DNA of 64,000 nt from Candidatus Kapaibacterium sp. (GTDB taxonomy: Bacteria; Bacteroidota; Ignavibacteria; Kapaibacteriales; UBA2268). Both the position numbers and the translations under genes were made by a program. The notes below the pieces were generated by a model that made no database searches, was not told the origin of the DNA, and was given only the letters and a program-made list of their open reading frames with translations. The stretch spans positions 2,304,001-2,368,000 of the forward strand of contig OY761611.1 of the NCBI GenBank assembly GCA_963664875.1. The letters run 5' to 3'. Shown here piece after piece: positions 49,209-64,000 of the stretch. Positions within the stretch are counted from its first letter, which is position 1. Every line of letters begins with the position of its first letter.

Positions 49209-50303
49209 CTATATTTTTTTTATTCTTTTTTCTAGTTCGTAAATGCTATACAGCACATCATTTGGCTGGATTGATGAAAGTGAGCCACTTTCTGTGGTTA
49301 GTGTAATGTGTTCGGAGTTATATGGAGTCCATGGCTTTCCGGCAAACTCTCTGCCGGATATTTCATACATACATATTGCAGGTATGTTGCGTGCAGCTGC
49401 TATATGAACTGCTGCAGTATCAGGAGTAAGAATCATATCAGCTGTGCTAATCATACATATCCATTCATGTATTGAAGACGCTGCCGGAGCTATCCTTGCG
49501 TATGTCCGTGCTGATATTGTTTCCAAATCTCTATAATATTCTGAAGTGCCAAAACAGACAACATCAAAATCAGGACGGGAAGCAGCCAATCTTTCAATAA
49601 GATAAATATGATTGCTCTGTCCCCAATATTTATTTGGAGTAGAGCCGGCTAAGTTAATACATAGTCTAAATTTTTCTTTTTTGCCAAGTCTTCCCTCTGC
49701 AAATGCGATATCTTCCTCCGACAAAGGATATGAGAGTTTCAAATCAGAACGCAATGGATTGATATTGAATGGCAGAAGAAGGTTAGCCAATCTGTCAGTG
49801 ATGTGATATTCCTGCTTATCAAGCAAAGGCACAAGGTGCGAATAAACATGTGCATTACTTTTCTCAATACCAAGCGAAAAAGTAGATCCGGATAGTTTGA
49901 CTATCAAAGAAGAAGTCGCGGATGCATTATCATACATATCAATTATTAAGTCATACTTATTATGACGTAATTTCCGTATGAGACTGAAATTTTCTTTGAA
50001 ATTTCTACCATAAACATAGAAATTATCAGCAAATCTTTCGAAAGCCCGTTTTGCACCCTGATTGCGGTGGCTTAACAAAATATCAATCTTTGCCTCAGGT
50101 AGTGCTTCTTTAATTTTTTCTACTATAGGTACTGATACAAGCACATCCCCTATTCTGTCTTGCCTTAGAAGCAGAACCTTTTTAATATTTTTGCCTGTAA
50201 ATACCGCAGTAGGTTCGCTAACTTCCTGCTGAAATGAATGGTAAGAAAGCGCTGAAGTAATCCTGCTACGCAGATAAAGTTCTATTTTTTTGAGTAATGC
50301 CAT
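49209..50303 (-). CDS. Glycosyltransferase family 9 (LPS heptosyltransferase-like)
   Basis: RQDRIGDVLVS, YDLIID, KYW, LTPDTAAVHIAAA. Confidence 0.9.
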   Translation of the reverse strand: MALLKKIELYLRSRITSALSYHSFQQEVSEPTAVFTGKNIKKVLLLRQDRIGDVLVSVPIVEKIKEALPEAKIDILLSHRNQGAKRAFERFADNFYVYGRNFKENFSLIRKLRHNKYDLIIDMYDNASATSSLIVKLSGSTFSLGIEKSNAHVYSHLVPLLDKQEYHITDRLANLLLPFNINPLRSDLKLSYPLSEEDIAFAEGRLGKKEKFRLCINLAGSTPNKYWGQSNHIYLIERLAASRPDFDVVCFGTSEYYRDLETISARTYARIAPAASSIHEWICMISTADMILTPDTAAVHIAAARNIPAICMYEISGREFAGKPWTPYNSEHITLTTESGSLSSIQPNDVLYSIYELEKRIKKI

Positions 50304-50610
50304 AGACACAAAAATAAGAAATTGCAATCTCAAATCTTAGTACAAATTAGGCTTTGCTAAAGATTAGTTGTGGCTTAACACAATAGAAGAAATTGAAATC
50401 TTGTCAATATTTCGTATCAAATGATTGTACAAAATTAAAGATTTTCATCCTATATATAATATAATTATATTCAATTTACGATTGTATGGTATATTTGTAA
50501 CTAATATCATACTTAAGTGTTTTACAAATATAATTTCAAATTACGAATTACAAATTTTGGTGAGAGCCTGAAAGGCTCAAAGTAATAGTGTATTGTAGCA
50601 AAGTATAAAA

Positions 50611-50823
50611 ATTTCCCCTCTTGAGGGGTGCGTGAGCGAAGCGAGGGCGGGGTGGAAACAAACGAAGCACAAAGCCAAACAACATAAAAAATATAAATTA
50701 AATAGATAATCTTAGCGATAATATTTTCGGGGTAGTGATAAGATAAGGTTCTTATCCACCCCGTCTCACCTTCGGTGAGCCACCCTACTTCGGCAGGCTC
50801 AGCACATCGCTCAAGAGGGGAAT
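50611..50823. repeat. Inverted REP doublet (CCCCTCTTGAGGGG family), copy 1
   Basis: TTCCCCTCTTGAGGGGTG...CGGGGTGGA, an AT-rich spacer, then the inverted arm TCCACCCCG...CTCAAGAGGGGAA. Identical copy at 52737. Confidence 0.9.
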
Positions 50824-50872
50824 AATTAGGATTTTGAGTGAAAAACAAAATACACATATGGAAATTTACAAC

Positions 50873-52735
50873 ATGAAACAACTTATACTATTACTTTTAA
50901 TCGTGCCTGCGCTGCTTAGTGCCGAACTCTATGAAGGATCTGACTCATTAAAGCCAAAAAAGGAATATACATATAAAGCAAAAGGTGGTTTAGATATAGA
51001 CCCTAATCTGCTTAATGACGAAGTTCCTGATGACCCTCGTATTCGTTTTGCTACTTATTTTGGTGGAAGTGCAGCTGATGCAGTGCAAGATTTCAAGATT
51101 GATTCTAAGGGATATTTGTATGCTATTGGTAATACCTTTAGTAATGACTTTCCAATGGTTGGAAATTCCTTTGATTCTGAAAAAACTGAAGAAGATTATA
51201 TTGATGCTTTTATTGTCAAATTTGACACATTAGGCTTTCCTGTTTGGAGTACATACTTTGGTGGAACAGGAGAAGACAGAGGTACTAGATTAGAAATTGA
51301 TTCAGATGATAACATAATTATTGCAGGAGCTACTAATTCCCCAAATTTCCCATTAAAATGTGAATTTGATCAAGACAGTATAAAAGGCGAGGCAGATATG
51401 TATGTTGCTAAGTTTGATCAGAATGGCAATTTACTATGGTCAAGGTTGTTTGGCGGAACATATTTAGATCAGGCTTTTGGACTTGCCGTAGATGATGATG
51501 ATAATGTTTATTTGGCAGGTAACACTATGAGTACTGACATTGTAAGAAGTGATTGGACTTACCAACCTGAGTTTAGCCTGTTTTTAGATAAATGGCGAGA
51601 ATATTCAGATGGCGTATTTGCCAAATTTAGTCCTGAAGGTAAACATATATGGTCGAGCTACTTGGGTGCACAACGTGTCGAACATTTAGAAGACATTGAT
51701 GTTTATGGGGATGAGATAGCTATAGTTGGACGTTTAAATGCTCCCATTACAAAGACACATGAAAATATGTATCTCATAGGTACTGAAGATGCTATTCAGA
51801 AACTACCATGTGATACTATGCTGTACGAACATTACACACTTTTCGATCCATTTATTGCCAAATTTACAACTGACAGCTGTAAACTTAAATATTTTACTTA
51901 CTACTGTTCTCAAACTATAAAAAAAGAATTATCCGATAATAGATATTATTTCTCTGATTATGATTCCAAAGGAAATTATATTTTAATTATTGACACAGAA
52001 AATAATTCCATGGAGGTAAAAGGTTCTCCATTTCAAGATTATAGTCCTAATACTAACTACCCCGGCATGATGATGTTATCTCTTAGTCCCCAAAATACTG
52101 TCAATTGGGATTGGGATATCACAGCTGGTGAAAATTTCTCAGATAATGCATACACTATAGATAATCAAATATTATGGGGTGAAGTAACTACAGATAAAAA
52201 TTTGTTTCCCGAAGACAGTAATCATATTGCAAACAGAGACAATGGTTCTACCCGTACTTCTTTGTTAATGAGATTTGATTTAGAAAACTATTCTCAATGG
52301 TATTCTTACCATCCTCACTTCGATGCGGAAAATAGAATTGTTTGTAAAAATAATGATTTATACATGGTGTCCAAATCTCATCCATCACACTTACTCAAAA
52401 ATGCTTATTCTGAAGAATTCCATGAGTATGGCTTATATCTAATCAATTTTGATATGAGAGAGGATTTCGGATACTCTGCTATAGATACAGGAAGAAATGA
52501 TTTATCAAACATATATGTTTATCCATCAATAGCAACTCAATCTATAACTATATCTTCTGAAGATTCCATTAGACAACTACAAATCTATGATTTACTCGGC
52601 AAGCAATTATATTATAAAGAAATACAAATACCATTCCCATTAAACGAGTTAGAAATTAACATAGAGAACTATGCAGACGGGATGTATTTCATTCTTGTAA
52701 ACAATAATTACAGTCTTAAATTTATTAAGGAGTAA
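50873..52735 (+). CDS. SBBP-repeat (beta-propeller) T9SS cargo protein, paralog 1
   Basis: Signal peptide MKQLILLLLIVPALLSA; repeats ATYFGGS..D, DAFIVKFD..G..VWSTYFGG, GATNSPNFP; C-terminal YP...IYDLLGK...GMYFI...KFIKE. Confidence 0.9.
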   Translation: MKQLILLLLIVPALLSAELYEGSDSLKPKKEYTYKAKGGLDIDPNLLNDEVPDDPRIRFATYFGGSAADAVQDFKIDSKGYLYAIGNTFSNDFPMVGNSFDSEKTEEDYIDAFIVKFDTLGFPVWSTYFGGTGEDRGTRLEIDSDDNIIIAGATNSPNFPLKCEFDQDSIKGEADMYVAKFDQNGNLLWSRLFGGTYLDQAFGLAVDDDDNVYLAGNTMSTDIVRSDWTYQPEFSLFLDKWREYSDGVFAKFSPEGKHIWSSYLGAQRVEHLEDIDVYGDEIAIVGRLNAPITKTHENMYLIGTEDAIQKLPCDTMLYEHYTLFDPFIAKFTTDSCKLKYFTYYCSQTIKKELSDNRYYFSDYDSKGNYILIIDTENNSMEVKGSPFQDYSPNTNYPGMMMLSLSPQNTVNWDWDITAGENFSDNAYTIDNQILWGEVTTDKNLFPEDSNHIANRDNGSTRTSLLMRFDLENYSQWYSYHPHFDAENRIVCKNNDLYMVSKSHPSHLLKNAYSEEFHEYGLYLINFDMREDFGYSAIDTGRNDLSNIYVYPSIATQSITISSEDSIRQLQIYDLLGKQLYYKEIQIPFPLNELEINIENYADGMYFILVNNNYSLKFIKE

Positions 52736-52736
52736 A

Positions 52737-52949
52737 ATTTCCCCTCTTGAGGGGTGCGTGAGCGAAGCGAGGGCGGGGTGGAAACAAACGAAGCACAAAG
52801 CCAAACAACATAAAAAATATAAATTAAATAGATAATCTTAGCGATAATATTTTCGGGGTAGTGATAAGATAAGGTTCTTATCCACCCCGTCTCACCTTCG
52901 GTGAGCCACCCTACTTCGGCAGGCTCAGCACATCGCTCAAGAGGGGAAT
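52737..52949. repeat. Inverted REP doublet, copy 2 (identical to copy 1)
   Basis: Same sequence as 50611-50823, offset by 2126 bp. Confidence 0.92.
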
Positions 52950-52998
52950 AATTAGGATTTTGAGTGAAAAACAAAATACACATATGGAAATTTACAAC

Positions 52999-54855
52999 AT
53001 GAAACAACTTATACTATTACTTTTAATCGTGCCTGCGCTGCTTAGTGCCGAACTCTATGAAGGATCTGACTCATTAAAGCCAAAAAAGGAATATACATAT
53101 AAAGCAAAAGGTGGTTTAGATATAGACCCTAATCTGCTTAATGACGAAGTTCCTGATGACCCTCGTATTCGTTTTGCTACTTATTTTGGTGGAAGTGCGG
53201 CTGATGCAGTGCAGGATTTCAAGATTGATTCTAAGGGTTATTTGTATGCTATTGGTAATACCTTTAGTAATGACTTTCCAATGGTTGGAAATTCCTTTGA
53301 CTCTGAAAAAACTGAAGAAGATTATATTGATGCTTTTATTGTCAAATTTGACACATTAGGTTTTCCTGTTTGGAGTACATACTTTGGTGGAAGAGGAGAA
53401 GACAGAGGTACTAGATTAGAAATAGATTCAGAAGATAACATAATTATTTCAGGAGCTACTAATTCCCCAAATTTCCCATTAAAAGGGGAATTTGACCAAG
53501 ACAGTATAAAAGGCGAAGCAGATATGTATGTCGCTAAGTTTGATCAGGACGGCAATCTTCTATGGTCAAGGTTATTTGGCGGAACATATTTAGATCAGGC
53601 TTTTGGTCTTGCCATAGATGCTGATGATAATATATATCTTGCCGGTAATACTATGAGTACTGATATAGTCAGAAGTGACTGGACTTATCAGCCTGAGTTC
53701 AGCTTGTTTATTGGTAAATGGCGAGACTTCTCTGATGGAGTATTTGCCAAATTTAGTCCGGAAGGTAAACATATATGGTCGAGCTACTTGGGTGCGCAAC
53801 GTGTCGAACATTTAGAAGACATTGATGTTTATGGGGATGAGATAGCTATAGTTGGACGTTTAAGTGCTCCTATTACAAAGACTCATGAAAATATGTATAT
53901 AATAGGAACTGAAGATGCTATTCAAAAATTCCCATGTGATACTATGCTGTACGAACATTACACACTTTACGATCCATTTATTGCCAAATTTACAACTGAC
54001 AACTGTAAACTTAAGTATTTTACTTACTACTGTTCGGAAGCCAGGCGTGCAAATTTAAGTGATAATTATTATTTTTTCTCAGATTATGATGCAGACGGAA
54101 ATTTTATTTTAATTATTGACACTGACGACAATTCTATGCAAGTCAAAGGTTCTCCGTTTCATAATTATAATGAAATTGGAGGGCATTTTGGCAGGATGAT
54201 TCTGTCTTTAAATTTAGAAAATAAAGTTAATTGGGATTATGATATGATGGGAGGCTTAGGCTTTTTTGATAATTCATATGTTCTGGATAATAAAGTTTTG
54301 TGGGGAGAAGTCAATGCTGAAAAAAACATATTTCCTGAAGATAGCAATCATATCATTAATCGAGATCACGGAACTACTCGAACATCATTATTGATGCGAT
54401 ATGATTTAGAAAATTATAAACAATGGTACTCTTACCACCCTCACTTAATCGCAGACCCAAATCTTCTAGTTAAAAACAATGATGTTTATATTGTTTCTAA
54501 AGCACATTCAGCACACTTACTAAAAAATGCTTATTCTGAAGAATTCCATGAGTATGGTTTATATCTAATTAATTTTGATTTGAGAGAGAACTTTGGGTAT
54601 TCGGCAATAGATACAGGAAGAAATGATTTATCAAACATATCTGTCTATCCATCAATTGCATCTCAATCCATAACTATATCTTCTGAAGATTCCATTAGAC
54701 AACTACAAATCTATGATTTACTCGGTAAACAATTATATTCAAAAGAAATACAAATTCCCTTAAACGAGTTAGAAATTAACATAGAGAACTATGCAGACGG
54801 GATGTATTTCATTCTTGTAAACAATAATTACAGTCTTAAATTTATTAAGGAGTAA
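52999..54855 (+). CDS. SBBP-repeat T9SS cargo protein, paralog 2
   Basis: Tandem duplicate of 50873..52735. Termini are near-identical and the middle has diverged. Confidence 0.9.
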   Translation: MKQLILLLLIVPALLSAELYEGSDSLKPKKEYTYKAKGGLDIDPNLLNDEVPDDPRIRFATYFGGSAADAVQDFKIDSKGYLYAIGNTFSNDFPMVGNSFDSEKTEEDYIDAFIVKFDTLGFPVWSTYFGGRGEDRGTRLEIDSEDNIIISGATNSPNFPLKGEFDQDSIKGEADMYVAKFDQDGNLLWSRLFGGTYLDQAFGLAIDADDNIYLAGNTMSTDIVRSDWTYQPEFSLFIGKWRDFSDGVFAKFSPEGKHIWSSYLGAQRVEHLEDIDVYGDEIAIVGRLSAPITKTHENMYIIGTEDAIQKFPCDTMLYEHYTLYDPFIAKFTTDNCKLKYFTYYCSEARRANLSDNYYFFSDYDADGNFILIIDTDDNSMQVKGSPFHNYNEIGGHFGRMILSLNLENKVNWDYDMMGGLGFFDNSYVLDNKVLWGEVNAEKNIFPEDSNHIINRDHGTTRTSLLMRYDLENYKQWYSYHPHLIADPNLLVKNNDVYIVSKAHSAHLLKNAYSEEFHEYGLYLINFDLRENFGYSAIDTGRNDLSNISVYPSIASQSITISSEDSIRQLQIYDLLGKQLYSKEIQIPLNELEINIENYADGMYFILVNNNYSLKFIKE

Positions 54856-54857
54856 AA

Positions 54858-55068
54858 ATTCCCCTCTTGAGGGGTGGCATGCGTAGCATGACGGGGTGGA
54901 AAAGAATCTTATTTCTATCACTACTCTAAAAAATATATCGCTAAAGTTATTTATTTAGAAAACATACTGCATACTCTGAAAATTTGTGCTTCGTGTGTTT
55001 CCACCCCGTCTCACCTTCGGTGAGCCACCCTACTTCGGCAGGCTCAGCACATCGCTCAAGAGGGGAAT
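54858..55068. repeat. Inverted REP doublet, copy 3 (variant left arm and different spacer)
   Basis: TTCCCCTCTTGAGGGGTGGCATGCGTAGCATGACGGGGTGGA ... TCCACCCCGTCTCACCTTCGGTGAGCCACCC...CTCAAGAGGGGAA. Confidence 0.9.
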
Positions 55069-55100
55069 GGAGAGGGTTTTGGCTCAAAATATTAGAGAAA

Positions 55101-55225
55101 GAGCCTGAAAGGCTCAAAGCAAATAGCCCGGGGCAGCTAAGGTCACTGAGCGAGCGCAGCAAGTCGAAGTGCGGGAAAAGAAACGCCCACACCCTCGTTT
55201 TCCATAACCGAGCGGAGCGAGGTGA
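55101..55225. repeat. Composite REP cluster (GAGCCTGAAAGGCTC family with an embedded A-type repeat)
   Basis: GAGCCTGAAAGGCTCAAA (also at 50564), TAGCCCGGGGCAGC, then AAGGTCACTGAGCGAGCGCAGCAAGTCGAAGTG, the reverse complement of the array A repeat. Confidence 0.75.
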
Positions 55226-55319
55226 AGTATTTTCTTCTTTCTAAGTACAAGAATCAAAAAAATGTTTACATCTCTTAAATATTTTACTCTATCACTTAAA
55301 ATAAGGACTTATAGCGAGG

Positions 55320-55670
55320 GGTGTGGATTACCCGGATTGTATAATTATAGCTTATACATAGACTTATAATGCTTGCCGGAAATTATCAAATAATTGTCCA
55401 CAACTTTGATACAGAGCTGTTTTAAGAGGTGTTAGAAATTTGGAAAATATTGTGGATAACTTAGATTTTTGTCAACATCTCAAATTATTCCACTCCGAGT
55501 GTTGAAAACTATAAGTTATCCACACATTTATCCACAATACTTGATTATTAAAATTCCTTTACAATTTCCGATATTTCAAATACTTAGCTTTCCGAATTTT
55601 GGCTTTTCAACTTTTCTACACTAAGTACATATACATCATATTTATAAAAGAAAAAAAAGAACTCTATGTT
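55320..55670. other. DnaA-box cluster, candidate oriC
   Basis: Perfect TTATCCACA at 55516 and 55528 and on the minus strand at 55451. Near matches at 55322, 55352, 55394, 55469 and 55500. AT-rich non-coding region. Confidence 0.78.
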
Positions 55671-55671
55671 A

Positions 55672-56931
55672 TTATATTGTATCGAAGCCTGTATATCTTT
55701 GCAAGCACTCAGGTACTTTTACTGTTCCGTCTTCCTGTAGGTAAGTTTCGATTAGAGCAGCAAAAATTCTTGAAGTAGCTAATGCAGATCCGTTTAATGT
55801 ATGTACAAATTCCGGTTTAGCGTTAGGTTCTCTTTTGAATCTGATGTTTGCTCTTCTTGCCTGGAAGTCTTCAAAATTGGAACAGCTTGATACTTCTAAC
55901 CATTTTTCTTCGCCCGGAGCCCAAACTTCTAAATCGAATGTAGAAGCTGAAGAGAAACTTGTGTCACCTGAGCAAAGGTGAAGCAATCTATATTGTAATC
56001 CTAAGGCTTGTAAAAGGTCCTCAGCGTCTTTTATTAGGTTTTCCAACTCTGAGTATGACTCTTCCGGTTTAGTGAATTTGACAAGCTCTACTTTGTTGAA
56101 CTGGTGAACTCTAAGGAAACCGTGTACTTCTTTGCCATAGCTGCCTGCTTCTCTTCTGAAACAAGGAGAATAGCCGCATATTTTTATAGGAAGTTCTTCT
56201 CTGATAATTTCGTTGTTGTAGTAATTAGTAAGCGGAACTTCTGCAGTTGGGATAAGGTACATATTATCTTCTGTTGCATGGTACATATCTTCAGCCATTT
56301 TAGGAAGCTGACCTGTGCCACGCATAGAGCTTTCGTTTACAAGGAAAGGAGGCATCATTTCGTAGTATCCGTGTTTTTCCAAGTGAGTATTGAGGAAGAA
56401 ATTGATAAGAGCTCTTTCCAAAGCAGCACCTTTACCGGTATAAAAAGCAAAGCCTGCACCTGAAACTTTTGCACCTCTTTCGAAGTCAATAATTTTGCGG
56501 TCTTTAGCTATTTCGATATGGTCTTTTTTAACAGGCTGAGTAACTCTTTCGCCCCATTCTTTTACTACTTTGTTATCAGCTTCAGATTTTCCTATAGGTA
56601 CATCTTTGTGGCACATATTAGGAACTTTGCTCATAAGCTCAGCAATCTGATTTTCTACATCGCGAAGTTCGTCGTCCATATCTTTGATTTTATCAGAAAC
56701 ATCTTTCATTTCAGCGATTTTGTCGTCAGCATTTTCTTTATTTTTTTTAAGCTCGGCAATTTCTTTAGAAGCAACATTACGTTGATTTTTAAGATTTTCA
56801 ACTTCTGCTATTATAGTTCTTCTCTTTTCATCAAGCTGAGGAAGAGCAGTAACATCAGCAGATTCGTTTTTGTTTTTGATATTTTGTTGTACCAAATCAA
56901 TATTTTCGCGTACAAATTTCAAATCCAACAT
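55672..56931 (-). CDS. serS: Serine--tRNA ligase
   Basis: MLDLKFVREN coiled-coil arm, LIPTAEVP, CFRREAGSYG, RVHQFNKVE, EVSSCSN, HTLNGSALA. Confidence 0.99.
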   Translation of the reverse strand: MLDLKFVRENIDLVQQNIKNKNESADVTALPQLDEKRRTIIAEVENLKNQRNVASKEIAELKKNKENADDKIAEMKDVSDKIKDMDDELRDVENQIAELMSKVPNMCHKDVPIGKSEADNKVVKEWGERVTQPVKKDHIEIAKDRKIIDFERGAKVSGAGFAFYTGKGAALERALINFFLNTHLEKHGYYEMMPPFLVNESSMRGTGQLPKMAEDMYHATEDNMYLIPTAEVPLTNYYNNEIIREELPIKICGYSPCFRREAGSYGKEVHGFLRVHQFNKVELVKFTKPEESYSELENLIKDAEDLLQALGLQYRLLHLCSGDTSFSSASTFDLEVWAPGEEKWLEVSSCSNFEDFQARRANIRFKREPNAKPEFVHTLNGSALATSRIFAALIETYLQEDGTVKVPECLQRYTGFDTI

Positions 56932-57096
56932 ATCGAAATCCTATTGTTTAGTGTATTAAATATAGTCTTTTTGATTCTACACGAAATTAGTTAATAATTG
57001 CTAAACCAAATAATTAAATTGTTGAGTAGATAGGTATATATTTAAAAGGATATATAGTGAGTGAAATGAGGTGGTAGGAAGAATATTCTTTTACAT

Positions 57097-57165
57097 CACT
57101 TCAGTTTACTGAGTTTGCTGAGTGAGATTAACAAGTTCATCGAGCGAGCAAAGGGAGTCGAGATG
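57097..57165. repeat. Isolated degenerate A/B repeat pair of the GIY-YIG array family
   Basis: CACTTCAGTTTACTGAGTTTGCTGAGTGAG ... GTTCATCGAGCGAGCAAAGGGAGTCGAGATG. Confidence 0.7.
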
Positions 57166-57550
57166 TAGAAATTATTCTGATTTCCATATCCACTTGTCGT
57201 ATCTATTTACATAACCCCAGAATGTTTTACAATCACTGGTTGAGGTTATAATACATATCATGAGCTTCATATATTCCGTTTTATATCTCTTTTAGATATA
57301 GAAAATCTTTTTCAACAATTTGGCATCTACCTATATCGTAAATTATCAGAGTTTTTGAATTATTGTTATTATAGTTTTTGAATGGATTAGGTTTTGATTT
57401 ACAATTTTTAGAGATATATTTCTTTTTATACTTCCTATTACCGTTACTGTCAAGTACTACATTTTCACTATTTTGGAGTATCTTGATTCCATCTTTATAG
57501 GCAGATTTCCAGAAGTATGCTCAAAATCTATTATCTATAAAATTTAAATA

Positions 57551-58036
57551 TCATTCTTCAAACCCTCGATTATTTATTTTATATAATTTTTTAATTACAG
57601 ATATGGCTTTGCTACTTCTTTCTTCATCTAAGACATTTCTAAATATTTCAAATATTCTATCAGAATAGTCTTCAAAAGATATTCTAAAGAACAAATCAAT
57701 ATATTGTCCCTTCAAAATAGTTAAAGAAAATAGATTTCTTTTTGCTATATCTCTATTTAACGAATATTTAGTTCCACCTAATTTACTTAAACTATCTAAA
57801 AGTTTTTCTTTTTCGTCAATACTAATATCAATTCGATCATAAACGCTAAACCATTCAGATTGAAATGAAAATCCTATCGGTGATAATAACAAAGCAGGAT
57901 AATACCCACTTGCAGAGTCCCGATCTCTAATAATTATTACCAAATGCTCTCTATACAAATATATTGAAGAATTTTGATTATATAAATTTGTACAAAGTAG
58001 CAATACAAATACAGAATATTTAACTATTTTAAACAT
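57551..58036 (-). CDS. Hypothetical exported protein (possibly truncated or immunity-like)
   Basis: AAGGA RBS and signal-peptide-like N-terminus; very AT-rich; no recognisable motif. Confidence 0.5.
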   Translation of the reverse strand: MFKIVKYSVFVLLLCTNLYNQNSSIYLYREHLVIIIRDRDSASGYYPALLLSPIGFSFQSEWFSVYDRIDISIDEKEKLLDSLSKLGGTKYSLNRDIAKRNLFSLTILKGQYIDLFFRISFEDYSDRIFEIFRNVLDEERSSKAISVIKKLYKINNRGFEE

Positions 58037-58045
58037 AATCTATCC

Positions 58046-58276
58046 TTAAGGTTTTCCGACAACTTGTGGTACATTAGATATCCACCTAATTTGACCTAAA
58101 TGGAATGGTACACTTTCTGGTGTTACTACAGTAGGTCCTATATAATTTATATTACGATTAGTATCAGTTGTATATCCCCATTGTACAGTCTTTAAGACGT
58201 CATGATTTTTAAATCCAATACTGTCCTCGCGAATACCAACAAGACTTGTTGTTGCAATAAAATCTTTATTTGCAAT
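58046..58276 (-). pseudogene. Start-less 76-codon gene fragment
   Basis: Open frame IANKDFIATTSLVGIREDS...LKTVQWGYTTD...VVGKP* overlaps the WG-repeat ORF tail and ends 9 nt before the next ATG. Confidence 0.45.
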
Positions 58277-58875
58277 TTATAGAAACCATACGAATTTTTA
58301 CAATCAAATAATGCAATATCATGGTTTATGTGATCTAATAGAAAAGGGAATTTCATGTCCTTACAAAAATCTTCATATAAAAGATCAAAATATCCATATT
58401 CAATAGGCAATATTGTATTCGTATTTATATCTACTAAACAATTTTTTTTATTTTTAGTATCAGATTCTTTTATTGTCACCACATAAACATCATCTTTCCA
58501 GTATAAATAAGCATCATAGCCAATATTATATATCTTCTTTTCTTTTGGTCTCAATACATACTGATAATCTGCTGAGTAATCGGTGCCATTGAATCTTATA
58601 GTATCAAAGCCTCTATTAAATACTAATCTACCGGTATTATCAATAATAAACTGCTTCCCTTTATAAGTAACAATACCAAATTCTTTATCAAACTGAGTAG
58701 CTTTATCAAATCTATAATCTACAATAAGCTTTCCATACTGATTTATATATCCCCAGCTTCCGTTATTCTCCACAGGCAATAGAATATTTTCAGGGATAGA
58801 ATAATGCAGCGGTTTATCGCAACTAGTAACTAAAAGTACAAAAATTATAATAATTAGAGAGCGCACTAAACGCAT
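58192..58875 (-). CDS. WG-repeat lipoprotein, probably 3'-truncated
   Basis: Lipobox LVTSC; SWGYINQYGKLIVDYRFDKATQF, IIDNTGRLV and LVDINTNTILPIEY are WG_beta_rep-like units. The tail looks out of frame. Confidence 0.7.
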   Translation of the reverse strand: MRLVRSLIIIIFVLLVTSCDKPLHYSIPENILLPVENNGSWGYINQYGKLIVDYRFDKATQFDKEFGIVTYKGKQFIIDNTGRLVFNRGFDTIRFNGTDYSADYQYVLRPKEKKIYNIGYDAYLYWKDDVYVVTIKESDTKNKKNCLVDINTNTILPIEYGYFDLLYEDFCKDMKFPFLLDHINHDIALFDCKNSYGFYKLQIKILLQQQVLLVFARTVLDLKIMTS

Positions 58876-58939
58876 AAAAACCTCACTTTCGAAACACTCC
58901 ATATAAAATAGCAGATATTTTAAAAGAAAACAAAAGCTT

Positions 58940-58955
58940 TGTTTCATGTGAAACA
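58940..58955. other. parS-like site 1
   Basis: TGTTTCATGTGAAACA vs consensus TGTTNCACGTGAAACA. Confidence 0.85.
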
Positions 58956-59265
58956 AAAAAAGTACTTAGTGGTTTGCACTTCGACTCACTGAGATTGGGA
59001 TAATGTGCTACAATAATATTTAAGGTCATCGAGCGAGTACAATGAGTCGAGATGCAATACAGTCACTTTTACACTTCGACTCACTGCGTTCGCTCAGTGA
59101 CCTTAGTAAATAAGTACAATTATAAAATAAAAAGGACATCGAGCGACCAGAGGGAGTCGAGATGCAATACACCTTCTTCTTTCACATCGATTCATTTTAG
59201 TCACTCAGTGACCTTAAAGAATATAAGATATAAAATAAATAGAATTTAGATTTAAAACAGATAAG

Positions 59266-59281
59266 TGTTTCATGTGGAACA
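59266..59281. other. parS-like site 2
   Basis: TGTTTCATGTGGAACA. Confidence 0.85.
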
Positions 59282-59601
59282 ATCTTTGTGAAGAGGTTGT
59301 GGCTTACACTTCGACTCACTATGTTCGCTCAGTGACCTTAAGAATAGACCAGATAATTCAAAAAGGTCATCGAGCGATTGGAGGGAGTCGAGATGTATGA
59401 CTTTTATTTTTACACTTCGACTCACTACCTTCGCTCAGTGAGCTTCGGGTATTTTTCTGTATTATAATATAGGTCATCGAGCGACCAGAGGGAGTCGAGA
59501 TGAAGAACTATCCTTTCTACACTTCGACTCACTGCGTTCGCTCAGTGAGCTTGAACAAATAAGGTATATAATATATGATAATAAGATTCAAAATAGATAA
59601 A

Positions 59602-59617
59602 TGTATCATGTGAAACA
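59602..59617. other. parS-like site 3
   Basis: TGTATCATGTGAAACA (one additional mismatch). Confidence 0.7.
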
Positions 59618-59788
59618 GTCTTTGTATAAGAGCTTTTAGCTTACACTTCGACTCACTGCGTTCGCTCAGTGACCTATGTGTAAATATGTACGAATAATAC
59701 ATAAGGTCATCGAGCGACCAGAGGGAGTCGTGATGCAAAATTCATATCAATATCAAAATCGAACAATATCAGATATCTAAACACGTAC

Positions 59789-59804
59789 TGTTTCATGTGG
59801 AACA
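59789..59804. other. parS-like site 4
   Basis: TGTTTCATGTGGAACA, 6 nt upstream of the first ATG of the GIY-YIG ORF. Confidence 0.85.
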
Positions 59805-59810
59805 AAATAG

Positions 59811-60113
59811 ATGCTTATGGCAAAAGCTTATACATATATCCTACTTTGTTGTGATGGTACTTATTACACAGGCAGTACTAAAGATTTGCATTTAAGAATG
59901 GTAGAACATTATTCCGGCGAAGGAGCAAATTATACATCGAAACGCCTCCCTGTTAAACTTATCTATGTAGAAGAATTCGATAGAATAGATCACGCCTTTG
60001 AAAGAGAAAAGCAAATACAAGGCTGGTCACACCGCAAAAAGAAAGCCCTCATAGAACGCAACTATGATAACTTAAAGAAATACTCCAAATCTTATCAGAT
60101 GTTAGAGAAGTAG
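59811..60113 (+). CDS. Small GIY-YIG nuclease (UPF0213/YhbQ-like)
   Basis: YTYILLCCDGTYYTGST.DL..R...H..GEGANYT.KRLPVKLIYVE...AFEREKQIQGWS..KK.ALI. The catalytic Tyr/Arg/His/Glu pattern is intact. Confidence 0.93.
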   Translation: MLMAKAYTYILLCCDGTYYTGSTKDLHLRMVEHYSGEGANYTSKRLPVKLIYVEEFDRIDHAFEREKQIQGWSHRKKKALIERNYDNLKKYSKSYQMLEK

Positions 60114-60120
60114 GTAGTGA

Positions 60121-60535
60121 CACTTCGACTCGCTGCGTTCGCTCAGTGACCTTAAAAAAGATATGCCGTGCTAATTCAAAAAGGTCATCGAGCGAGTGAA
60201 ACGAGTCGAGATGCAGAACAATTCCAATATGCACTTCGACTCACTGCGTTCGCTCAGTGAGCTTGAGATATTGTGTTGCAATAGTATTGAAGGTCATCGA
60301 GCGACCAGAGGGAGTCGAGATGTTGGACTGTAACATTTACACTTCGACTCACTGCGTTCACTCAGTGACATTGAGATATTTCTCTATTTTAGTATAAAGG
60401 GTCATCGAGCGAGTGAAACGAGTCGAGATGCAGAACAATTCCATTAAACACTTCGACTCACTACGTTCGCTCAGTGAGCTTATCTATAGAAAAATAATTA
60501 GAAAGGTCATCGAGCGAGTGTAACGAGTCGAGATG
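60121..60535. repeat. Alternating inverted palindromic repeat array, right arm (4 A/B pairs)
   Basis: A at 60121, 60232, 60340, 60449. B at about 60181, 60290, 60398, 60503. Period 108-111 bp. Confidence 0.95.
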
Positions 60536-60561
60536 CAAAATACAAATATCAAAACTCGTAT

Positions 60562-60577
60562 TGTTCCATGTGGAACA
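60562..60577. other. parS-like site 5
   Basis: TGTTCCATGTGGAACA. Confidence 0.85.
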
Positions 60578-60583
60578 ATAGTA

Positions 60584-60937
60584 CTAGTAGCTCTCCCCTT
60601 TGTTTTCCAGTTCTATTCTTTTTATTTCGATTGCTTTAAGTTTTTTAGCCACTGCGGTTCCGAGTTGTATATTTCTTGCATTGCAGTAGTTCATAAGGGC
60701 TATAAATACATCGGCAGCTTCATCTTCGAACCTACTGTGTTCTATAGTTTTGCCTTTCCATTGTTTCTTTTCTATGTTAGCAAGTTCTCCTGCTTCTCCG
60801 TTTAGTTCAAGGCAGAAAAATTCGGGGCTTTTTGGTGTGAAATGTTTGTTTTGATACTTATCAAATTCTTCTTGTATTTGATTTATAGGCTCTTCGCAGT
60901 AATGAAGGAGTATAGGCATATCTATGTATTCAGACAT
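60584..60937 (-). CDS. MazG-like nucleotide pyrophosphohydrolase
   Basis: LELNGEAGELANIEKK...FEDEAADVFIALMNYCNARNIQL, an ExxE...ExxD all-alpha NTP-PPase motif. Confidence 0.85.
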   Translation of the reverse strand: MSEYIDMPILLHYCEEPINQIQEEFDKYQNKHFTPKSPEFFCLELNGEAGELANIEKKQWKGKTIEHSRFEDEAADVFIALMNYCNARNIQLGTAVAKKLKAIEIKRIELENKGESY

Positions 60938-60940
60938 TTT

Positions 60941-63130
60941 TTATTCCTCAAAATCTTTAAAATAAGTTCTAATTTTTCCTATTAGTAAATCTACAGCGTT
61001 GTTTTTTGCAGTCTTTTTACTATTCCCGGTCTGGGTAACTGATGCGGTAAAATCTTTGATTATTATTTCTGCTGTGCATTCGAATTCAGGTTCAGGAACT
61101 GATGAGATTTCTTTGAAAGTATAGATAGGCATGCGAGTGTCGAAATATTGGCAGATTAAGGATATTGCATTTGATTGCAAACCTTCTTCAATAAGTTTCC
61201 TGATTGCGTCGAGTCTATTATCTACTTTGGATACTGCGAAGTCTTGTAAATGGAGAAAAGCCATTTTAGCTGCCTTCTGTTTTGCAGTTTTCTTATTTTT
61301 CCCATTACCGTAAAATTCTAATACTTCTTCTTTATACTTTAATTCAAGTTTACATTTAAAACTTGTATTATTTTCCGGAAGAGGTTCTATGTAATAGCCA
61401 AGAAGTTTAATATCATTATTCTGCATGGTTAGTGTATTTATTAGACTTACCGAGTCTTCTATTGTAGATTCTTGAATATTTGAATGCTCAATGGTTTGAT
61501 CCTTATGTTGTGTATTCTCTTCTGTCTCTATATAATTTGTAGTGGGTTTTTCTGCTTCAATACAATTATTCTTAATAAAATCTACAAGTACTGCAGCACG
61601 CGAACTATTTATAGCTTCTTTTTTATTAGTGTTTGAAATTTTCAAAGTTGTAGTGTAGTATTTGTTGTCTGAAGTTTTGATATAAGTTCTGTTGTGAAAT
61701 ATATCTCCTTTTTTCTCAGTTTCCTCTTCTATTTCTGAAATCAAATTTTGTGACTGCATTAGATAAAGTATCTGTGAGCCTATACTTGGAATCTTAAGTA
61801 TATTATCGAGTATTGCATCTCTTATATCCGGTTCTGATTCTAACCAGTCAGATTCAAAAATAATATAATAAATTTCGATTGCAGTTATAGACATTGAATT
61901 TAGTCTATTTAGTATCTCTGTTTTTATTATTGGTTTTATCGCAGCTGAAGATCTCAGGTTTTTCAGGATGTTTTTAAAATCTCGTACTTCCATTTCAGAA
62001 AGCGCGTTGCTATTGATATTGATGAGACTTGCACTAATTTCTTGGTTGAAAATCTTTTTGAAATGTTCAGTCTTTTTTTCTCTTTCCTTTTCAAAAAAGT
62101 CATTTACAAAATTGCAATAATCTTCAATTTGTTCTATTGTAAATGGTATTGGTGAACCTGTTATGTGACTTCTGATAATAGTATGATTCAATAAATCAGG
62201 GAATCGTCTAATTGGCGAAGTAACATGTGCATAAGCCGGTAGGTTCAGAGCATAATGCCCTTTCAGTTTCGTTTCGTAAATAGCTCTGTTTTGCCATATA
62301 GACATTCTACTTATAAAAGTTGATAAGGTTGAAGGGTTGTTTATGGCGGTAAGCAGTTGATTGTGTACTTCTTCCCTGTCCGGAATATTTGATTTTACAG
62401 TATGATTTCTATATACAAACGGAATATCTTTCTCAGCAAAGTATCTTGCTGTTTCGGAATTAGTAAGTACCATCATTTCTTGAATAATCATATAGGCAAT
62501 TGCTACTTTTTTATTAGCAAATATCTTTACATTTCCTTCTTCATCTGTATATAAGCCCTTGTCTGGGTCAAAATATGAGAGTGCTCCCATTTGCTTTCTC
62601 TTATTGCTCAGTTTAATAGCAAGTTCGTAAGCATTTAAAAGCATTTTTTTGATTTCGGAATGATTTGTTTGATCAGTTAGAATATCCACTACATTTTCAT
62701 AAGTAAGTTTTGCGAGGCTCTTAATCTTCCTTTCTGAAATACTAAAGTCAACTACATCCAAAGAATCATCTAATTCGATATGGAAATTTATTGCAGGACG
62801 TTTAAATCCTTCTTTTAGACTCAATAATCGGAATGATAAAAAATTTGGCAGCATAGGAAGCGAAGATTCTTTTAAGTAAATTGTAGTTACAAGTTGAGAA
62901 GCATTTTCAAAGACAGGCGAATCAGCTTCTATATAAGCAGATGTGTCTGCAATTGCGATATCACAGATATACATATTATCTCTTTTTTCTACCCAAATAG
63001 TATCATCCATATCCTTTGTTTCAGCAGAGTCTATACTCAGACCATTAACTGATTCTCTGGATTTGAGATTTATATCTTTATTTTTTAAATTTTCTGCGTA
63101 CTCTATACATCTACCGGTAAATCTTGACAT
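60941..63130 (-). CDS. RNase II/R (RNB) catalytic domain fused to 2-3 C-terminal dsRNA-binding domains
   Basis: SIDSAETKDMDDTI, IAIAD, TIYL...PMLP, IIQEMMVLTN, GHYAL...YAHVTSPIRRFPDLLNH. dsRBD-like ends NTNKKEAINSS, GNGKNKKTAKQKAAKMAF and GNSKKTAKNNAVDLL. Confidence 0.85.
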   Translation of the reverse strand: MSRFTGRCIEYAENLKNKDINLKSRESVNGLSIDSAETKDMDDTIWVEKRDNMYICDIAIADTSAYIEADSPVFENASQLVTTIYLKESSLPMLPNFLSFRLLSLKEGFKRPAINFHIELDDSLDVVDFSISERKIKSLAKLTYENVVDILTDQTNHSEIKKMLLNAYELAIKLSNKRKQMGALSYFDPDKGLYTDEEGNVKIFANKKVAIAYMIIQEMMVLTNSETARYFAEKDIPFVYRNHTVKSNIPDREEVHNQLLTAINNPSTLSTFISRMSIWQNRAIYETKLKGHYALNLPAYAHVTSPIRRFPDLLNHTIIRSHITGSPIPFTIEQIEDYCNFVNDFFEKEREKKTEHFKKIFNQEISASLININSNALSEMEVRDFKNILKNLRSSAAIKPIIKTEILNRLNSMSITAIEIYYIIFESDWLESEPDIRDAILDNILKIPSIGSQILYLMQSQNLISEIEEETEKKGDIFHNRTYIKTSDNKYYTTTLKISNTNKKEAINSSRAAVLVDFIKNNCIEAEKPTTNYIETEENTQHKDQTIEHSNIQESTIEDSVSLINTLTMQNNDIKLLGYYIEPLPENNTSFKCKLELKYKEEVLEFYGNGKNKKTAKQKAAKMAFLHLQDFAVSKVDNRLDAIRKLIEEGLQSNAISLICQYFDTRMPIYTFKEISSVPEPEFECTAEIIIKDFTASVTQTGNSKKTAKNNAVDLLIGKIRTYFKDFEE

Positions 63131-63170
63131 GATATTGCGTTTATTACTTAAACAATTCCTTTAAAATAGT

Positions 63171-63209
63171 AAAAAAGCTGCCTTAGAAATAAATCCTTTT
63201 GGCAGCTTT
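63171..63209 (-). terminator. Terminator of the upstream T9SS protein gene
   Basis: AAAGCTGCC...GGCAGCTTT with a T-run on the minus strand. Confidence 0.7.
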
Positions 63210-63236
63210 AAAATAAATATTAAACATGACTACTTA

Positions 63237-64000
63237 TTATCTTGCTATAGTCATCATGTGTGTAAATCTTTGACCTTTGTATAGCATTTCAATAAAATAT
63301 GTTCCTATAGATAAATTTTCTGTAGAGAAGCTAACAGAATTTTTTCCTAAAGAACCTATGCTATTATAAATTGCTCCGACAAATCTACCGTGTGCATCAA
63401 AAATATTGAGAACGATAGGAGATGATTCAGGCAGAACAAAATCTATTGTAGTCATACCGGAAGCCGGATTCGGATAATTTGAAAGTTCCAATAAGCCGAA
63501 AGGAGAATCAAATACGGAGTTCGGATCATTTCCAATTCCGGTTAGAGTTACCTTTTGAACACCATTATCGGCATCGCTAACTATTGATAGCATTGCAGCT
63601 TTGCTTCCTTCACTCTTAGGACTAAATGAAATCTCTATGCTAGCAGAAGTAGAAGAATTCAAATCAAGTGGTAGATTGCTGTTATTAAAAGAGAAATTAT
63701 CTTTGTCCGAACCTACAAGTGATAAAGAAGTAATCTTCAAAGTAGTATTACCAAGATTTTGAACTGTAAGCTGAGCAGTGCTTGTTTCTCCAATATCAAC
63801 AGTCGGGAAAGCATAATTTGATTCGACTTCAAGTACTTTTGTAGTTGTAATGACTTCGGTACCTACACCGGTTACTGTAGCTTCAATCAAAGGAGTTTCA
63901 GCATCAGAGTATATTGATAATTTAGCCGATTTATTGCCTACTGTTACAGGAGCAAATTGAATTCTTATAGCAAGGTCTTTTCCTGCATCTATATATTGCT
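63237..64000 (-). CDS. T9SS cargo protein with Ig-like (choice-of-anchor D) domains, 5' end outside the window
   Basis: LTVQNLGNTTLKITSL Ig domain; NYPNP...IFDAHGRFV...GTYFI sorting domain. The frame runs to the window edge. Confidence 0.85.
   Translation of the reverse strand, partial: QYIDAGKDLAIRIQFAPVTVGNKSAKLSIYSDAETPLIEATVTGVGTEVITTTKVLEVESNYAFPTVDIGETSTAQLTVQNLGNTTLKITSLSLVGSDKDNFSFNNSNLPLDLNSSTSASIEISFSPKSEGSKAAMLSIVSDADNGVQKVTLTGIGNDPNSVFDSPFGLLELSNYPNPASGMTTIDFVLPESSPIVLNIFDAHGRFVGAIYNSIGSLGKNSVSFSTENLSIGTYFIEMLYKGQRFTHMMTIAR

Follow-up and report, generated by a model that had tools for sequence, protein, structure and literature searches.

The exoribonucleases of the RNase II/R superfamily share an RNB catalytic fold and, to our knowledge, in all characterised members the substrate is selected by domains with the oligonucleotide-binding (OB) fold, the cold-shock domains (CSD) and S1, through which single-stranded 3′ ends are threaded. 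In bacteria, again as far as we know, double-stranded RNA-binding domains (dsRBD) otherwise mark RNase III, an endonuclease that differs in its catalytic domain and whose only dsRBD, at the C-terminus, belongs to the Pfam family of those described here. The window analysed in this work, a stretch of 64,000 nucleotides of Candidatus Kapaibacterium sp. (contig OY761611.1), includes on its reverse strand a gene encoding a 729-aa protein in which an RNB domain is followed by a helical region and three dsRBDs. Replacement of the OB-fold modules by dsRBDs is seen in this protein and extends to no fewer than 177 cluster representatives. We consider it probable, judging from sequence and structure models, that the protein is an accessory, stand-alone 3′-5′ exoribonuclease of the RNase II/R superfamily that is tethered to duplex RNA.

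The protein shares with RNase R and RNase II the RNB fold and its motifs, and its best sequence and fold matches are the RNase R entries 8cdu and 8cdv, but it lacks the helix-turn-helix, CSD1, CSD2, S1 and K/R-rich tail of these enzymes, carries three dsRBDs and belongs to a separate clade. A similar reduction of the accessory domains around an RNB core is described for the RNase II family protein of Deinococcus radiodurans (2r7d) and for Haloferax volcanii RNase R in the passages available from PMC12320835; 2r7d was matched both by sequence (E 2.7e-11) and by fold (E 7.4e-17), but neither those passages nor the matches attribute to these minimal proteins dsRBDs or a helical region like that of the window protein. 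DIS3L2, an RNB enzyme that works independently of the exosome and engages RNA hairpins, is among the fold matches, and the duplex gains entry once its CSDs have swung aside (passages of PMC12320835); unlike the window protein it is eukaryotic, keeps its CSDs and S1 and has no dsRBD. Tandem dsRBDs on flexible linkers similar to those of the window protein are found in TRBP, Loquacious, Staufen and MLE, which are however non-catalytic partners or helicase fusions, none of them fused to an RNB nuclease.

The 729-aa protein displays the features by which the RNB superfamily is recognised, namely the Pfam domain, the fold match, the motif-I aspartates and the motif-IV arginine, located in the TSPIRR motif. 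Pfam RNB (PF00773) covers amino acids 31-324 with an E-value of 3.3e-66 and 224 bits, versus a cut-off of 29.3. Motif I (residues 33-43, with the four aspartates D34, D40, D42 and D43) and the TSPIRR motif (amino acids 304-309) match the solved RNase R of B. subtilis and E. coli column by column, and in the alignment of 22 family members the residues of both motifs are invariant or at least 90% conserved. The motif-I aspartates are what we take to be the metal ligands of the RNB active site. A metal-ligand role of RNB aspartates is backed, in general terms, by the passages available from PMC12320835. The Foldseek search with the full model gave RNase R 8cdv as the best match (E 2.6e-22), next RNase II, Rrp44/Dis3 and Dis3L2, and then tandem-dsRBD proteins. 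No CSD, OB_RNB or S1 domain was detected by Pfam in the 729-aa protein, while a like scan of the canonical RNase R of the same genome did show CSD2 and OB_RNB, so that the preliminary description of this locus, made from the letters alone, was right in placing an intact motif I close to the N-terminus of a protein without CSDs or an evident S1. The NCBIfam models for the described enzymes were not reached, neither the RNase R equivalog TIGR02063 (189.4 vs 597.85 bits) nor the RNase II models NF003455 (136.7 vs 542 bits) and TIGR02062 (116 vs 641.9 bits). The RNase III catalytic domain is absent, the match to TIGR02191 (19.3 vs 166 bits) being confined to a dsRBD at amino acids 553-625.

The reading of 729 aa is supported by four congeners that align from residue 1. 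The database version of the same protein (P0001) has only 627 aa owing to a downstream start, with which motif I would be lost; gene starts assigned automatically may thus miss the catalytic N-terminus.

The AlphaFold2 model built on the 22-sequence alignment (mean predicted local distance difference test score, pLDDT, 85.4; predicted template modelling score, pTM, 0.58) contains three α-β-β-β-α units, at residues 448-519, 560-629 and 652-723. Pfam dsrm (40.5 bits vs a cut-off of 23) recognises two stretches, which correspond to the second and third units (dsRBD-B and dsRBD-C), and the first (dsRBD-A) was confirmed by fold search, in agreement with the two clear and one degenerate dsRBDs initially proposed. 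A separate model of amino acids 325-530 reached a pLDDT of 85.2, and in the VIA-align comparison its residues 123-198, which correspond to 447-522 of the protein, matched Loquacious dsRBD3 with Z 8.8 and a root-mean-square deviation of 2.2 Å over 69 residues, most of the top rows being dsRBDs; these rows cluster on the dsRBD part and thus bear on dsRBD-A, not on the helical region. Foldseek with the same model gave no match at E<=1e-3 and only weak rows (best E 4.8e-3).

The KKxAK sequence at helix 2 and the GPxH loop are RNA-contact motifs of dsRBDs. Each of the three domains has a conserved motif of the KK type: in dsRBD-A the pair K503/K504 is retained and at least 90% conserved, as are K613, K614 and A616 in dsRBD-B, and the KK..K columns of dsRBD-C are invariant in a separate alignment (A4). 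The GPxH loop is missing in the dsRBDs of the host genus and present in phage and some metagenomic members, dsRBD-A in particular lacking the GPxH-type loop of the phage members. Tandem-dsRBD matches of dsRBD-B to TARBP2, Loqs and TRBP were obtained with Foldseek. The region between the RNB domain and dsRBD-A is modelled as a long helix (332-370) followed by a helical bundle to about residue 446; it is homologous between Bacteroidota-type and phage members, has no Pfam match and, in a Protein Atlas search with amino acids 328-450, gave nothing usable. Coordinates of all these elements are collected in Table 1.

Table 1. Elements of the nuclease locus, in positions of the 64,000-nucleotide window.
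Feature	Position	Strand	Basis and remarks
RNB-helical-dsRBD putative exoribonuclease, coding sequence, 729 aa	60941..63130	-	Open reading frame; Pfam RNB and dsrm; TAA stop 60941-60943 included
RNB catalytic domain, aa 31-324	62159..63040	-	Pfam RNB, Foldseek, motif alignment
Family-specific helical region, aa 325-446	61793..62158	-	AlphaFold2 models; occupies the canonical S1 position
dsRBD-A, degenerate, aa 447-522	61565..61792	-	VIA-align, conservation, phage alignment
Predicted flexible, low-confidence linker, aa 523-559	61454..61564	-	pLDDT <50 at residues 532-556
dsRBD-B, aa 560-629, NKKTAKQKAA motif	61244..61453	-	Best Pfam dsrm stretch, 562-628; AlphaFold2
dsRBD-C, aa 652-723, SKKTAKNNA motif	60962..61177	-	Second Pfam dsrm stretch; AlphaFold2
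Putative YpjD-type MazG-like all-alpha NTP pyrophosphohydrolase gene, 117 aa	60584..60937	-	Profile matches; adjacent, probably co-transcribed here, not a conserved partner
Hairpin-repeat array, units of ~108 nt	~58,960-60,560; outlying copy 57123-57177		Imperfect inverted repeats; no Rfam family
Terminator-like hairpin, 9-bp stem, 18-nt loop, T-run	63171..63209	-	Between the upstream type IX secretion system (T9SS) subtilase gene and the nuclease gene; function presumed

The genome, a single contig of 3.83 Mb, has a second RNB locus (369 bits) at 3.69 Mb, whose product of 730 aa combines CSD2/OB_RNB, RNB and S1. A canonical RNase R, on whose presence elsewhere the preliminary description depended, is thus encoded outside the window, and the RNB-dsRBD protein is therefore an accessory paralogue. 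A separate frame of 270 aa with a strong dsrm match is RNase III-like. If the favoured reading is correct, the dsRBDs, by way of their conserved KKxAK-type helices, would anchor the enzyme on RNA that is duplex or highly structured, the flexible linker would allow the exposed RNB core to catch a nearby 3′ end, and the core would digest processively to nucleoside 5′-monophosphates (NMP) at its conserved two-metal aspartate site. In a channel without CSD cap, duplex RNA would gain direct access to the unwinding surface of the core; the isolated RNB domain of RNase R is said to degrade duplex RNA lacking overhangs. An uncapped core is in line with passages of PMC12320835 which describe RNB proteins whose accessory domains are minimal and according to which CSDs must shift aside before duplex RNA reaches the tri-helix wedge. 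Such an enzyme would supplement the canonical RNase R and RNase III of this genome. We infer the nuclease activity, the duplex binding by the dsRBDs and the delivery of 3′ ends to the uncapped core from the architecture and the motifs. The architecture stood as first described, and a dsRNA-directed 3′-5′ exoribonuclease is plausible and has gained from the family-wide evidence. If active, an exonuclease recruited to duplex RNA would provide a way to remove dsRNA, antisense duplexes or hairpin-rich transcripts, one that lies outside current models of bacterial RNA decay.

A word-indexed search revealed 22 clusters that combine RNB and dsrm, including that of the window protein. An exhaustive hidden Markov model search of 1.84 billion representatives was carried out with a family-specific profile of 18 sequences, restricted to the helical region and the first dsRBD, and 885, 617 and 177 cluster representatives were obtained at E<=1e-3, 1e-10 and 1e-30, respectively. 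Domains were checked in every second one of 145 new best matches (73 representatives), among which RNB was present in 68, RNB together with dsrm in 64 and CSD or S1 in none. Motif I lies inside the first 53 residues in 115 of the 118 representatives of 560-950 aa. When the RNB core was subjected to a quick maximum-likelihood analysis, 34 RNB-dsRBD rows were separated in the tree from 16 canonical rows with 99% support in the Shimodaira-Hasegawa-like approximate likelihood ratio test (SH-aLRT), and inside the family two weaker subgroups were distinguished (85% and 86% support), one with the bacterial-family sequences and the other with all 10 viral-contig sequences. In a search of genome contigs with the full-length alignment, the canonical RNase R dominated and no family-specific locus was among the matches listed, and a search of metagenome contigs with the C-terminal alignment gave 595 pattern matches, none of them confirmed. 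No description of an RNB-dsRBD enzyme was found in the full-text literature, including the jumbo-phage papers PMC7824862 and PMC13282480, the search leaving supplements and subscription journals outside its scope. The RNB-helical-dsRBD proteins constitute a distinct, so far undescribed RNB subfamily of sizeable extent that is shared with huge phages.

Two of the 73 representatives checked, P0231 (1545 aa) and P0245 (1391 aa), are SNF2-family helicases (DUF3670, SNF2 and Helicase_C) which match the later part of the family-specific profile near their N-termini with E-values of about 1e-34 to 1e-35; the module is therefore also joined to helicases, in the place of the RNB nuclease.

A scan of IMG/VR yielded proteins matching through the helical region on contigs of 48-536 kb with a guanine-cytosine content of 52-72%. 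The uncultivated viral contigs in which relatives occur measure 94-536 kb and are mostly huge-phage records. Domains were checked in eleven of the viral-contig proteins (about 525-634 aa), and RNB was found in all of them and dsrm in 10. One viral record of 437 kb is bounded by direct terminal repeats and was rated 100% complete by CheckV. The flanks of five viral loci (L128-L131 and L135, on IMG/VR contigs of 168-536 kb; 83 open reading frames) were compared with PHROG, which revealed HNH and homing endonucleases, an RNA ligase, a nucleotidyltransferase (CCA-type), phosphohydrolases and an ADP-ribosylglycohydrolase, a deoxynucleoside monophosphate (dNMP) kinase near the RNB-dsRBD gene in three of the five loci and a thymidylate synthase in two. 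An HK97-type capsid family was matched in three of the five records, and the terminase families PF03237 and PF17289 in none. The GenBank phage collection contained no full-length member, with 40 and 39 records matching the RNB part only, over at most 57% of the query.

In bacteria the gene is patchily distributed. T9SS sorting domains in the neighbouring genes point to Bacteroidota as the phylum of the host. The specific profile detected the gene in 19 of 130 genomes and 13 of 55 genera of the family of the host, including all five genomes of the host genus. It was detected in none of 124 genomes that represent the remaining families of this order, nor in any of 400 genomes of an even sample of the phylum, six of which belong to the family of the host. 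A weaker profile applied to the phylum gave single dsRBDs only, in frames of about 250-290 aa. Compared with four congeners, the RNB-dsRBD protein is 48-49% identical, whereas the canonical RNase R reaches 86-89% and the MazG-like protein encoded beside the nuclease 70-73%, and the divergence is unevenly distributed, with 65-66% identity in the RNB core and 33-35% in the remainder. G002 and G003 form a close pair, with 92% identity. The nuclease is dispensable in most relatives and is fast-evolving, above all in its RNA-binding half. Neither this fast evolution nor the sharing of the family with huge phages had been foreseen in the preliminary description.

The gene immediately downstream of the nuclease encodes the MazG-like protein. 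Its ATG (60935-60937) lies 3 nt from the nuclease stop codon, as initially described, and both genes are probably co-transcribed here. Motifs of the type EXXE...EXXD define MazG and the all-alpha NTP pyrophosphohydrolases. The protein alone scores 15.2 bits with Pfam MazG, below the cut-off of 22 (relatives, 19.3-20.2), but a 12-sequence profile matched B. subtilis YpjD (PDB 2gta, E 9e-6), the nucleotide pyrophosphohydrolase 5ie9 and dCTPP1/RS21-C6, and the acidic motifs GEAGEL and EDEAADV are invariant or nearly so in the 12 relatives. In its profile matches and acidic motifs the protein resembles YpjD/dCTPP1-type enzymes; it differs from them in its score below the Pfam cut-off when searched alone and in matching no NCBIfam or PADLOC model. 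Of 61 related genomes, 52 have a match to the MazG-like gene, weak in two cases, and in nine of the same 61 the nuclease was detected. The order nuclease to MazG-like gene is kept in four of the five genomes of the genus (G000-G003), with 33-44 nt between the genes in three congeners; the adjacency was found in none of 13 other testable loci. In G004 the two genes are about 25 kb apart, and in G011, G020 and G023 they are on different contigs, the locus of G020 being too short for adjacency to be judged. The MazG-like gene was not present within the fetched flanks (about 0.5-8 kb, bounded by contig ends) of 10 further nuclease loci, nor was it found in five huge-phage records that carry the nuclease. 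Where the nuclease is lacking, the MazG-like gene directly adjoins, or overlaps with, upstream genes of unrelated function, for example those of a CNNM transporter, a response regulator, an HHH protein and an ABC ATPase; therefore, tight spacing is a habit of this gene and no sign of partnership. We conclude that it encodes a widely conserved, putative housekeeping NTP pyrophosphohydrolase that probably stands behind the nuclease by chance in this genus. In G004, as in G001, it follows a gene for a T9SS-sorted protein and precedes one for a hybrid histidine kinase, a layout which suggests that the nuclease gene has shifted relative to a conserved MazG-like locus.

Several observations weigh against the proposed duplex-tethered exoribonuclease. 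The absence of GPxH from the β1-β2 loops in this genus may mean that the duplex affinity of the individual dsRBDs is weak; dsRBD-A was matched best by protein-binding dsRBDs (Loqs dsRBD3, TRBP dsRBD3 and Staufen dsRBD5), tied with RNA-binding ones; the domain arrangement is uncertain at the pTM obtained, so that the geometry of a dsRBD-guided capture of 3′ ends is conjecture; and the fast evolution could instead reflect relaxed constraint. The 3-nt spacing, together with the adjacency in four of the five genomes of the genus, would also be compatible with some local functional tie between the nuclease and the MazG-like gene. A two-gene module, anti-phage or for RNA surveillance, had been suggested in the preliminary description, and in its favour the short gaps here and in three congeners suggest co-transcription and the gene order has been held in the genus despite differing flanks. 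The distribution given above largely refutes it, however: the MazG-like gene occurs in most of the related genomes regardless of the nuclease, the genes are far apart or on different contigs in four relatives, the 10 further loci, within their fetched flanks, and the phage records have the nuclease without it, and unrelated genes are abutted equally tightly. RNB enzymes release NMPs, which are not substrates of MazG. Lack of conservation of the linkage had itself been named at the outset as a ground for abandoning the pairing, and the adjacency is not conserved. PADLOC-DB v2 gave no family for the nuclease, the MazG-like protein or the GIY-YIG protein of the neighbouring array, and the surroundings are those of housekeeping genes, which also speaks against the defence function initially suggested for the locus. 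We therefore regard the two-gene module as very improbable, and the tempting but unsupported annotation of an RNase-MazG defence module is removed by this analysis.

A role in conflict that does not involve the MazG-like gene fares better and is nevertheless rather unlikely. The enzyme would be exchanged between huge phages and bacteria, degrading host or structured RNA for nucleotide supply or takeover on the phage side and removing phage-derived or antisense duplex RNA on the bacterial side. The sharing of the family with huge-phage contigs, its patchiness within one bacterial family and absence from the rest of the phylum sample, the very fast divergence among congeners, chiefly in the RNA-binding half, and the dNMP kinase and thymidylate synthase genes near phage copies are all consistent with such a role, and the huge-phage copies near genes of nucleotide metabolism and RNA repair, combined with fast bacterial evolution, make the family a testable candidate for phage-host interaction at the RNA level. 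Nevertheless, besides the lack of PADLOC matches, no defence, prophage or mobile-element genes flank the nuclease in the 16 bacterial loci examined, full-length members are missing from GenBank phage records, and either direction of transfer would be compatible with a tree whose subgroups have only 85-86% support and whose metagenomic rows lack taxonomy. Extended to a whole, so far unrecognised class of duplex-RNA-guided exoribonucleases moving between huge phages and bacteria and acting in their conflict, the proposal is speculative and in our opinion unlikely; the enzymes of the phages would break down structured or duplex RNA of the host, feeding adjacent nucleotide-salvage genes or blunting RNA-based immunity, and bacterial versions would clear phage or antisense dsRNA, which, if true, would make the class a bacterial, exonucleolytic counterpart of the dsRNA surveillance exerted by eukaryotic dsRBD proteins. 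A specialised housekeeping maturase, trimming in this family the 3′ ends of structured rRNA, tRNA or RNase III-product precursors, would agree with a chromosomal, single-copy, monocistronic gene in housekeeping surroundings, and with the DEAD/DbpA rRNA-helicase gene that immediately precedes it in G002 and G003; for relatives of RNase R, an action on rRNA and tRNA is documented in the passages available from PMC12320835. A core maturation role is, however, unexpected for a gene that was not found in 111 of the 130 genomes of the family and whose conservation is far below that of the canonical RNase R, and the helicase neighbour counts as a single observation because G002 and G003 are a close pair, so that this explanation is decidedly unlikely. 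That the protein is an inactive RNA-binding pseudonuclease, like yeast Ssd1, would fit the loss of the usual accessory domains and the fast evolution, but is barely credible in view of the family-wide conservation of the four motif-I aspartates and the TSPIRR arginines. The duplex-tethered accessory exoribonuclease is thus the reading that we prefer.

A hairpin-repeat array is located downstream of both genes. Each unit is a long imperfect hairpin of about 35 bp, and the fold of the plus strand (-40.3 kcal/mol, z -4.2) is better than that of the minus strand (-30.6 kcal/mol). The test pattern for the unit has 15 copies in this genome, 10 of them in this array, versus 30 in G001, 18 in G004, one in G002, two in G003 and none in G023, mostly in one array each. 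The preliminary description had pointed to the array beside the nuclease, and the array was considered as its dedicated substrate; this candidate was rejected, since in the relatives the nuclease gene persists where no array adjoins it or where the genome has only one or two copies, and in G023 where there is none. In G001 and G004 the main arrays are about 40 kb from the nuclease gene and no array was found within the 18-kb nuclease loci of the congeners, the adjacency being peculiar to this genome. Inside the array, on the better-folding strand, there is an open reading frame of 100 aa (59811-60113, plus strand) for a GIY-YIG nuclease (Pfam E 1.8e-16), which may represent a mobile-element-like association. 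Five copies of a 16-nt palindrome-like word of the type TGTTTCATGTGGAACA, at 58940, 59266, 59602, 59789 and 60562, punctuate the array and its borders, one of them just downstream of the MazG-like stop codon.

Between the upstream gene and the nuclease, where a terminator had been proposed, a hairpin followed by a T-run was found and presumably acts as such (-15.3 kcal/mol, z -3.5, with 0 of 200 shuffles as good); it was missed in a consensus terminator scan because of its long loop. Rfam at the gathering threshold revealed no family in the region 50,000-64,000. The neighbouring genes in the host genome encode a T9SS subtilase, RF-2, RpiB, HslUV, SerRS and ATP synthase, and those of the relatives are also housekeeping genes, with no recurrent partner. 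The DEAD-box/DbpA-type RNA helicase genes that directly precede the nuclease in G002 and G003 are located at L093 5612-7462 and L094 10744-12558, and in both genomes RecA is encoded downstream of the MazG-like gene. Elsewhere in the window, two tandem paralogues of about 632 aa (50834-52735 and 52960-54855, plus strand) combine SBBP beta-propeller repeats with T9SS sorting domains.

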